A stretch of DNA of 44,959 nt from Escherichia coli. Its GTDB lineage: Bacteria > Pseudomonadota > Gammaproteobacteria > Enterobacterales > Enterobacteriaceae. The notes beneath the pieces are model-generated. The model was not told where the DNA came from. It made no database searches and was given only the letters and a program-made list of their open reading frames with translations. Location of the stretch: NCBI RefSeq assembly GCF_003334255.1, contig NZ_QOWU01000045.1. One strand, 5' to 3'. Each line of letters opens with the position of its first letter. The first letter of the stretch is position 1. A program made the translations under genes and the position numbers. Below, piece after piece: positions 43,348-44,959 of the stretch.

Positions 43348-43914
43348 ATGCTTGAACTTAATGCTAAAACCACTGCGCTGGTGGTGATCGATTTACAAGA
43401 AGGCATCTTACCTTTTGCCGGTGGTCCACATACTGCCGATGAGGTAGTTAATCGCGCCGGGAAGCTGGCGGCGAAATTTCGCGCCAGCGGTCAGCCCGTG
43501 TTTCTGGTGCGAGTTGGCTGGTCTGCCGATTACGCCGAAGCATTAAAACAGCCGGTTGATGCCCCCTCCCCCGCTAAAGTGTTGCCCGAAAACTGGTGGC
43601 AACATCCAGCTGCATTAGGTGCAACTGACAGTGATATCGAAATCATCAAACGTCAGTGGGGTGCGTTTTACGGTACAGATCTGGAGTTGCAATTACGCCG
43701 CCGAGGTATCGATACAATAGTGTTATGTGGGATCTCGACCAATATCGGTGTTGAATCCACCGCCCGCAATGCCTGGGAACTTGGCTTTAATCTGGTGATT
43801 GCCGAAGACGCCTGTAGTGCCGCCAGCGCCGAGCAACACAATAACAGCATTAATCATATCTACCCGCGCATCGCCCGTGTGCGTAGCGTGGAAGAGATCC
43901 TTCACGCGTTATGA
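43348..43914 (+). CDS. yecD: Isochorismatase-family hydrolase YecD (188 aa)
   Basis: Track ORF 43315..43914 trimmed to the ATG at 43348 ([19 protein letters not shown]), giving 188 aa. Confidence 0.9.
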
Positions 43915-44006
43915 TTTACATCGGTCTGCCGCAATGGTCGCATCCTAAATGGGTGCGGTTGGGGATCACCAGCCTTGAAGAGTATGCCCGTCACTTTAAC
44001 TGCGTG
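43911..44006 (+). pseudogene. yecE: 5' fragment of yecE (DUF72 family), truncated by insertion of foreign DNA
   Basis: The ATG at 43911 (overlapping the yecD stop as ATGA) encodes [32 protein letters not shown], which matches the YecE/DUF72 N-terminus; the frame then reads IRDF-stop (stop at 44019-44021) and no downstream frame continues a DUF72-like sequence. Confidence 0.7.
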
Positions 44007-44237
44007 ATACGGGATTTTTAAAAATCACTAAAGAACGCCCAAGAGCATGTGTTTTCTTTAGTAGAATCAAACTCTTGAATTTCCATGTCATATGAAAATC
44101 GGCAAAGTTCATATGTAACAAAGTGTCCCAACCATGCCCCAAAATGCCCCACAACAGACATTTTTGTCCCATGCATGCCCCAAAAAAATCACTTCCCCTC
44201 ACCTTGACACTGTTTATACATACAGTTAAAAATAATA

Positions 44238-44253
44238 CTGTACATAACCACAG
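44238..44253. promoter_or_regulatory. LexA (SOS) box upstream of the dinI-like gene
   Basis: CTGTACATAACCACAG fits CTGT-N8-ACAG, 16 bp upstream of the ATG and just upstream of the AGGAGG Shine-Dalgarno (44258-44263); TTGACA at 44204-44209. Confidence 0.6.
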
Positions 44254-44268
44254 TTACAGGAGGGTGTT

Positions 44269-44517
44269 ATGCGTGTTGAGATCTATATCGCTAAAGAAAA
44301 AATCAGCAAAATGCCAAAAGGTTCTGTTCCTGCCCTGCAGCAAGAGATGCTGCGACGTGTCAGTAAACGTTATGATGATGTAGATGTGATCGTTAAATCT
44401 GCCAGCAATGATGGACTCACCATTTTAAGAGCTGTAGATAAAGAATCCGCGCACGAATTTGTACAGGAAACACTGCAGGAAGCCTGGGAAACCGCTGACG
44501 ACTGGTTTATTCAATAA
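44269..44517 (+). CDS. DinI-family SOS-response protein (82 aa), prophage-type
   Basis: Track ORF 82 aa [82 protein letters not shown]; same length and the conserved C-terminal motif (ETWESADDWF in DinI) as chromosomal DinI; strong SD and LexA box upstream. Confidence 0.8.
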
Positions 44518-44883
44518 CGCGATCATAATCACGGCAATAACATATTTTTTATGACTTTATCCGTCCCGCATGACATAACAACTATCTGGTAGTTATAAGT
44601 TGCTTCTTCTGGTTGGGGAGTCGGAAAACTCCCCCTTTCTGATCATCCTGTTTTACCCGCTTAACCAGCAACCTGCCTCAGATTCACAAGTCACTTTTTG
44701 TATGGTATAAACCGGCGCTTTAATACAATTTACAGCCCTGGCATTTTCTGGCGGAGAGTGCGAAACTCCCTTTTTTACGGCATTTCTGTCGGAACTCATA
44801 TTTTTCCTGCATATCTGACACTTGCGTATTTTCATGGAAGGAGATCACCCAATAACCCCGATCTCCTTCATGTTAATACGCAG

Positions 44884-44959
44884 TCAGAATGAATAACGGA
44901 ACCCGGCGTTGACAGCATTATCAACGTTGTACTTACCAAAGGCTGATTTCTCAAACTCC
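44884..44959 (-). CDS. 3' end (last 25 codons) of a beta-barrel outer-membrane protein gene; product family unresolved
   Basis: Minus-strand frame ends ...EFEKSAFGKYNVDNAVNAGFRYSF-stop (stop complement at 44884-44886). A C-terminal aromatic preceded by alternating hydrophobic residues is the classic OMP barrel signature, e.g. autotransporter beta-domains or Ail/Lom-like proteins. Only 76 nt are in the window, and another minus frame is also open here. Confidence 0.3.
   Translation of the reverse strand, partial: EFEKSAFGKYNVDNAVNAGFRYSF

Follow-up and report, generated by a model that had tools for sequence, protein, structure and literature searches.

A probable P-EibC-type prophage end inside yecE on a K-12-like stretch of Escherichia coli DNA

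We examined a 44,959-nucleotide stretch of Escherichia coli DNA (contig NZ_QOWU01000045.1; hereafter the window, numbered from its first base), near the right end of which the gene yecE breaks off after its 32nd codon and is joined to 953 bp of foreign DNA. We conclude with high confidence that a P-EibC-type lambdoid prophage is lodged in the 5' part of yecE and that the boundary at 44006/44007 is its integrase-distal junction, attR by the lambda convention. The feature is already known, in that the insertion site, the attachment core and the family of cargo genes have all been described, and the junction itself lies inside a deposited sequence, GenBank AF151674, where it is unannotated.

The value of the analysis is accordingly one of annotation: the right end of the window can be assigned as the start of a P-EibC-type prophage, the attachment core is fixed to the base, and yecE is inactivated in this strain. 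In related genomes, prophages of this type carry genes for the immunoglobulin-binding protein Eib and for Eaa, a serine-protease autotransporter. To this we add two small increments, a set of candidate arm-type integrase sites and a double LexA-box-like operator ahead of a phage dinI-like gene, both of which are conserved across yecE phages. The features discussed below are collected in Table 1.

Truncation of yecE and the attachment core

The yecE fragment begins with an ATG inside the stop region of yecD, the yecD stop codon overlapping the yecE start. The 32 residues of the fragment are 100% identical to K-12 YecE (tblastn E 2e-17) and cover positions 1-32 of the 272 in the YecE model, NCBIfam PRK10302. 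At the DNA level there are two silent differences from K-12 yecE, at 43928 and 43991; identity continues up to 44006 (...AACTGCGTG) and there is none beyond. The open frame, 43911-44021, passes from the YecE residues into four phage-derived codons, IRDF, and ends at a stop codon at 44019-44021. When residues 33-272 of YecE were sought in all frames to the right of the junction, nothing similar was found (best tblastn E 1.5). RefSeq annotates the fragment as an incomplete pseudogene in four other genomes with this junction, those of G1/2, JNEC-KY204, LH50-c and strain 774.

These results agree with the initial annotation of the window, which had been made from the sequence alone and had proposed that yecE is cut after about 32 codons, that the rest of YecE is missing from every frame to the right, and that the DNA on that side is richer in AT than the preceding 44 kb or so. 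The G+C fraction is 0.416 for 44007-44959 and 0.504 for 78-44006, which places the foreign DNA about 2.9 standard deviations under the mean of core windows of 953 bp. Such a value is not unique to the foreign DNA, as the lowest core window reaches 0.377.

To place the junction among other strains, we surveyed 5,426 complete E. coli genomes with a 200-bp query centred on it, counting as carriers those that matched over at least 80% of its length. In most of 5,386 genomes only bases 1-100 of the query align, ending at 44006, and in genomes of this kind the annotation shows yecE/DUF72 at full length. The sequence that follows codon 32 here is not, then, shared by intact yecE genes, and 44007-44959 is absent from genomes in which the site is empty, so the foreign DNA is not conserved core sequence. 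The same junction with the same foreign arm is present in 242 genomes. A reciprocal query with the intact K-12 attB stretch found that stretch unbroken in 4,903 genomes; at this point in yecE, some 10% of complete E. coli genomes are disrupted, and roughly half of those have the arm of the window. It is a genuine junction and a recurrent one. The addition to biology is small, given that yecE is a described attachment site so commonly occupied or disrupted.

The initial annotation had also named yecE as an attachment locus for lambdoid phages, including those that carry Stx, and the literature bears this out: yecE, a gene of unknown function, is listed among the insertion sites of Stx phages (PMC8065619), and Nakamura et al. 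give a 21-bp attL/R for yecE phages (PMC8112680), which corresponds to 43988-44008 of the window. The same 21 bp are annotated as a repeat_region, "duplication due to insertion", at both ends of phage Stx2_12E129_yecE (LC567842). The record of PhiR49_2, a phage derived from ECOR13, ends no more than two bases from the equivalent of 44007. In their insertion point in yecE and in a core of about 21 bp, these phages, together with PPyecE_EH1910 and BP-4795, resemble the element in the window.

The core could be delimited more closely because the genome of G1/2 carries the same prophage end and also the opposite junction. With a slash at the right end of the core, the window reads ...GCCCGTCACTTTAACTGCGTG/ATACGG, the K-12 attB reads ...GCCCGCCACTTTAACTGCGTG/GAGGGC and the integrase-side junction of G1/2 reads ...ACCCGTCATGTTAACTGCGTG/GAGGGC. 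The 20-bp core of the window recurs at that second junction in 18 of 20 bases (two mismatches), 11 of them as an exact run, and the exact run common to all three junctions is TTAACTGCGTG at 43996-44006, within the interval of 43995-44010 where a core had been predicted. The core corresponds to codons 26-32 of yecE.

An artefact deserves mention at this point. Both ends of the window lie in repeated DNA, which is what one expects of a draft short-read contig, and it could be asked whether the junction is an assembly chimera, or else an unrelated deletion or rearrangement that happened to truncate yecE. Against this stand the recurrence of the same junction in 242 independent complete genomes, the AF151674 sequence, which spans it, and the coincidence of the breakpoint with a described attachment core. 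We regard such an origin as vanishingly improbable.

Table 1. Features at the right end of the window (positions are those of the whole stretch).
Feature	Position	Strand	Remarks
yecD, isochorismatase-family hydrolase	43348..43914	+	Host context; colinear with K-12 yecD, one amino-acid difference
yecE 5' fragment, codons 1-32 (96 nt)	43911..44006	+	
Attachment-site core (crossover region), 20 bp, CCCGTCACTTTAACTGCGTG	43987..44006		From comparison of window, K-12 attB and far junction of G1/2
P-EibC-type lambdoid prophage (probable), integrase-distal end, visible part	44007..44959		Without K-12 counterpart
Candidate arm-type site, copy 1, TGTCCCAACCATGCCCCA	44124..44141	+	Direct repeat family D1
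Half-site copy, ATGCCCCA	44144..44151	+	Same repeat family as the candidate arm-type sites
Candidate arm-type site, copy 2, TGTCCCATGCATGCCCCA	44165..44182	+	Direct repeat
Promoter-like site of dinI-like gene	44204..44233	+	-35 TTGACA at 44204-44209, 18-nt spacer, AAAAAT; consensus match only, 10/12
LexA-box-like site 1, CTGTTTATACATACAG	44210..44225		Within the promoter spacer
LexA-box-like site 2, CTGTACATAACCACAG	44238..44253		Just downstream of the -10
dinI-like gene, 82 aa	44269..44517	+	Shine-Dalgarno AGGAGG at 44258-44263, 5 nt upstream
Hairpin, likely dinI terminator	44615..44634	+	About 100 nt downstream of dinI; terminator scan; weak T tract CTTTCT; -12.4 kcal/mol with context
Weaker hairpin of similar sequence, then T6	44753..44776	+	Repeat D5; -6.7 kcal/mol
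Stem-loop downstream of eaaC, terminator	44837..44869	-	AF151674 stem_loop 7339-7371; inverted repeat I8, 10/10 complementary; -17.6 kcal/mol
eaaC 3' end (SPATE-type autotransporter), last 25 codons and stop	44884..44959	-	Gene continues past the window

The P-EibC-type end and the rest of the element in related genomes

A comparison of the foreign DNA with phage sequences gave an exact answer. Positions 44007-44959 are identical in all 953 bases to AF151674, "Bacteriophage P-EibC" of E. coli ECOR-9, over its positions 8201-7249 in reverse orientation. That record is annotated with orf-191C, eibC, orf-156C, orf-60C, eaaC and three stem-loops, and its sequence crosses the junction and takes in yecE' and yecD; the dinI-like gene, the attachment core and the yecE fragment carry no annotation there. 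P-EibC is thus like the window throughout the 953 bp, including the eaaC 3' end, its stem-loop and the junction, and differs in the allele of the host flank.

The tail of an outer-membrane protein gene noted at the very end of the window could be named by the same comparison. Read on the minus strand, 44884-44959 translates to ...EFEKSAFGKYNVDNAVNAGFRYSF followed by the stop codon, identical to the C-terminus of EaaC (...GFRYSF and stop), with the aromatic last residue that closes the C-terminal beta-barrel domain of that protein. In AF151674 eaaC is the coding sequence (CDS) at 3317-7324, and its homologue in JNEC-KY204 is annotated as a 4,008-bp gene for an S6 family peptidase; the serine-protease passenger domain would lie outside the window. 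An eibC gene would stand about 5 kb past the window end, where YadA-like genes sit in G1/2 and JNEC-KY204. According to a review of the SPATEs (PMC3153244), prophages of ECOR-9 specify EaaA and EaaC, autotransporters of that family whose genes are linked to eib genes; eaaC has been passed between strains by transduction, and the expression and role of EaaA and EaaC were untested.

The end seen in the window is a minority form of the yecE arm. Nine complete genomes match all of 43311-44959 at an identity of at least 97.8%, so that the eaa-type end at yecE occurs in 9 of the 5,426 genomes, as against 242 for the arm with its dinI module. What follows the dinI-like gene varies among yecE phages: the Stx2 phage has nleC there, PhiR49_2 has genes for side tail fibres, and the element in the window is of the eaa/eib type.

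The remainder of the element was traced in these relatives. From the window side, the order in G1/2 is yecD, the yecE' pseudogene, the dinI-like gene, eaa, a small open reading frame (ORF), a YadA-like gene (Eib), tail-fibre, J, tail and head genes, and onward lysis genes, Q, replication genes, an XRE-type repressor region, xis, a tyrosine integrase gene, a DUF72 ORF ('yecE), yecN and cmoA. About 56 kb separate the two junctions. The integrase of G1/2 has 436 amino acids (PHROG 1, 2e-86) and its excisionase matches PHROG 539 (1.6e-39), whereas neither an integrase nor an excisionase gene was found within the 953 bp of the element in the window. The gene order is lambda-like throughout in G1/2 and across the late region in JNEC-KY204; no gene of that series lies within the window. 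Because the integrase and excisionase genes of G1/2 are at the other end, next to the 3' part of yecE, the window holds the integrase-distal junction. The initial annotation had suspected as much when it described the edge of an integrated element, probably a lambdoid one, and that description is sustained by G1/2 and JNEC-KY204, where the same end is followed by eaa, eib, tail-fibre and J genes.

From these comparisons the following course of events may be proposed. The phage tyrosine integrase would have recombined attP with the chromosomal site across a common core of about 20 bp. In consequence yecE is split: the window holds 96 nt from its 5' end, and the 3' part would lie some 56 kb away. 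The far end would then carry the core as CCCGTCAYKTTAACTGCGTG, followed by yecE from codon 33 onward. If the lambda model applies, integrase bound to the core and to arm sites at 44124-44182 would assemble the recombination complex, and excision would restore yecE. At the window end the phage carries accessory genes not needed for phage growth, the dinI-like gene being the first. In the lysogen, as the operator sequence suggests, LexA would repress this gene and DNA damage would de-repress it at prophage induction, and its product, to judge from its family, would modulate the activity of RecA filaments. Next in line, on the opposite strand, is the gene for Eaa, a serine-protease autotransporter, and past the window end would come that for Eib, a trimeric autotransporter that binds immunoglobulins.

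At the integrase-side junction of G1/2 (L004 5102-5872), RefSeq places a 256-amino-acid DUF72 ORF that begins at an ATT codon in phage DNA (IKISKLILNTRHVNCV...). This ORF is a fusion of phage sequence with 'yecE and overlaps the 3' end of the integrase gene. We considered whether the phage might in this way restore yecE, and rejected the idea, as the fusion is missing the conserved first 16 residues of YecE and an ordinary start codon. Most likely it is an artefact of annotation, although an N-terminally altered YecE might conceivably be expressed from it. Among the other genes of the G1/2 prophage are three for tRNAs (Ile, Arg, Arg), placed downstream of Q, one for a cytosine methyltransferase that adjoins a gene for an ATP-dependent nuclease, and one of the TerB family.

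Candidate integrase sites, the dinI-like gene and its putative SOS control

In phage lambda, integrase acts on arm-type and core-type sites in attP, and the integrase gene lies beside the attachment site. The foreign arm in the window carries repeats that would suit a comparable role. A composite motif, TGTCCCA-N3-ATGCCCCA, is present in two copies and a half-site on this arm and in one copy on the integrase-side arm, where it lies 82 bp before the core in G1/2. In Stx2_12E129_yecE, the integrase of which is 74% identical to that of G1/2, the motif stands 73 bp before the core amid dissimilar DNA, and on the dinI-side arm of that phage the first repeat copy is again a conserved island with different surroundings. 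The repeats are most likely integrase arm-type binding sites, because they have the same orientation on both arms, lie at lambda-like distances from the core and are conserved amid diverged DNA. The integrase-side copy is within the integrase CDS, and part of its conservation may come from constraint on the protein.

The likeness to lambda extends to a tyrosine integrase beside the attachment site, to a short core that phage and host have in common, and to direct repeats, which occur on either arm at distances of tens to about 180 bp from the core. The core and arm sequences themselves differ, as does the target, which is intergenic for lambda and here a coding gene that is destroyed. Also unlike lambda, the yecE element has the 3' end of its integrase gene overlapping the arm, and its arm sites are candidates recognised from sequence. 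Among the yecE phages, the arm-repeat motif was checked in LC567842 and is shared there, amid diverged arm DNA. Two short ORFs on the arm, 44085-44204 on the plus strand and 43996-44202 on the minus strand, gave no NCBIfam match and were treated as non-coding arm DNA.

The first gene inside the element encodes an 82-residue DinI-like protein that matches Pfam PF06183 across the whole model (4.8e-17, positions 1-63 of 63) and PHROG 189, the RecA filament binding protein DinI (8.9e-27). Since its score against the DinI equivalog model, NCBIfam NF007893, is 63.3 bits and so under the 111-bit cut-off, we class it as a phage paralogue and not as the chromosomal orthologue. The initial annotation had called it an SOS-controlled DinI-like gene; the family assignment is upheld by these matches, and two LexA-box-like sites at the promoter speak for the putative control. 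The direct and inverted repeats that had been noticed in the foreign DNA are likewise present, as D1, D5 and I8 of Table 1.

The operator-like region is well kept among yecE phages, in which a dinI-like gene, the -35 hexamer and two LexA-box-like sites stand first inside the integrase-distal end, as here. In an alignment of five such phages the -35 hexamer is retained in all five. At site 1 the CTG and CAG arms are invariant, with changes at a single flanking T and a single spacer base; at site 2 the CTGTA and CACAG ends are invariant and the spacer is variable. The pattern CTGT-N8-ACAG occurs three times in the 45-kb window against 0.68 expected by chance. The third occurrence, CTGTGATTTTATACAG at 23283-23298, is positioned just upstream of yebG, a DNA damage-inducible gene in K-12. 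Because we take yebG to be a member of the LexA regulon, this site can serve as a positive control for the phage boxes. The dinI-like gene is probably switched on by DNA damage along with prophage induction, as far as its operator sequence can tell.

Chromosomal DinI of E. coli and Klebsiella is a LexA-controlled modulator of RecA filaments, and it is like the phage protein in Pfam family and size and like the phage gene in having a LexA-box-like promoter sequence and a terminator hairpin in its 3' untranslated region (UTR); the phage gene has two boxes, whereas Klebsiella dinI has one LexA box over the transcription start (PMC10907235). It is tempting to suppose that a gene which stands first inside the integrase-distal end, whatever cargo follows, lets the phage tune both prophage induction and the SOS response of its host, and that the 3' UTR of about 100 nt with its hairpin (44518-44634) is the source of a regulatory small RNA comparable to Klebsiella DinR. 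We consider this reading improbable.

Prophage integrity, ancestry of the host flank and remaining features

Several points weigh against the reading of the junction as the end of an integrated P-EibC-type prophage. The window takes in no more than 953 bp of the element, and it is from other genomes that the integrase, the second junction, eib and the structural genes are known. In G1/2, where they can be inspected, the annotation marks many structural genes as frameshifted or partial, those for terminase, capsid, portal, tape-measure and minor tail L included, and divides eaa between three ORFs; this could reflect real decay or (long-read) sequencing errors. Integrase binding, LexA binding and DinI-like activity are each deduced from sequence. 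Finally, the prophage sits in a long segment that is about 1.3% diverged from K-12, so that it may have arrived with its flanks by homologous recombination and not by fresh integration.

The first two of these points would suit an element that is a decayed, non-inducible remnant, or an island reduced to its dinI-eaa-eib cargo, for the part of the element in the window shows accessory genes only. Yet in JNEC-KY204, at the same end, the eaa gene of 4,008 bp is uninterrupted and lom, J and the tail genes are unbroken, the phage end is 100% identical to that of ECOR-9, and eaaC is reported to be transducible (PMC3153244). The many frameshifts of G1/2 may come from errors of long-read sequencing. 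We judge a remnant or a cargo-only island unlikely and, even were it true, the junction would still be the attachment junction of a prophage.

The question of import turns on the host DNA around the insertion. A map of single-nucleotide polymorphisms (SNPs) over the whole window counts 3 differences from K-12 in 78-39302 and 55 in 39303-44006, with a sharp mosaic boundary at 39303, just 4.7 kb from the yecE junction; 20 SNPs are concentrated in the last 480 bp of host DNA before the junction. On the other side of the prophage, the far flank in G1/2 is about 1.3% diverged from K-12 across at least 33 kb, and G1/2 differs from the window at 4 positions across 21.6 kb. By this SNP pattern, a K-12-like block abuts a long segment of other ancestry that includes the prophage. 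The host flank of ECOR-9 is of the other kind: over 42519-44006 it has 21 mismatches to the window, exactly where the window differs from K-12, and it follows that the ECOR-9 flank is K-12-like and the window flank is not. The window thus does not derive from ECOR-9, or at any rate does not carry its flank allele.

The SNP counts and the diverged far flank are what one would find if the prophage had been imported already integrated, together with flanking chromosome, by conjugation or generalised transduction and homologous recombination. The diverged tract is not confined to the junction, however; it is typical of E. coli mosaicism and may predate the integration of the phage. Moreover, an identical phage end stands in two alleles of the host flank, K-12-like in ECOR-9 and with 21 differences over the last 1.5 kb in the window, as expected for a mobile phage that moves independently of its flanks. 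Import of a resident prophage strikes us as somewhat unlikely, and it concerns the history of the insertion, not the identity of the junction. The sequences would be compatible with a phage that integrated into the diverged segment as well as with one that arrived with it. A recombination tract specific to the junction, in the form of a short co-imported flank, was rejected, as the SNP map and the far flank of G1/2 show a long, ordinary diverged segment.

The left end of the window bears on one further claim of the initial annotation, that the accessory genome begins nowhere else in the window than at yecE. This proved incorrect. Positions 1-77 are the end of an IS1 element that, by comparison with K-12, lies inserted within yobF; their reverse complement begins GGTAATGACTCCAACTTATTGATAGTG, and the match to K-12 starts only at about base 73-78. 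Because these bases are an IS1 end, there is a second accessory junction and accessory DNA at both ends, and the window is a K-12-like core segment between mobile elements, IS1 on one side and the prophage on the other. We also note that the DNA at both ends is of a mobile or repeated kind, IS1 at the left and multi-copy eaa/prophage sequence at the right, which suggests a draft short-read contig broken at repeats on both sides.

The 366-bp spacer between the dinI-like gene and eaaC (44518-44883) contains the hairpins listed in Table 1. The one at 44615-44634 probably ends the dinI transcript. Its sequence, GGGGAGTCGGAAAACTCCCC, is echoed 137 bp away by GGAGAGTGCGAAACTCCC and T6 at 44753-44776, and each of the two follows a TTCTGG. 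A possible promoter found by eye, TTCACA-17-TGgTATAAA at 44683-44711, lies ahead of the second hairpin. We rejected a small RNA or an independent conserved element in the spacer as unsupported, the whole spacer being found only in the nine genomes with the eaa end. A scan of 43800-44959 against Rfam at a permissive threshold returned no credible family; the one match, with 23.8 bits where the microRNA family concerned has a gathering score of 93, fell on the eaaC terminator hairpin and was dismissed. A 40-bp stretch in the region of that hairpin, 44823-44863, also has matches at chromosomal sites without annotation in some 500 E. coli genomes, where it may lie downstream of other autotransporter genes.

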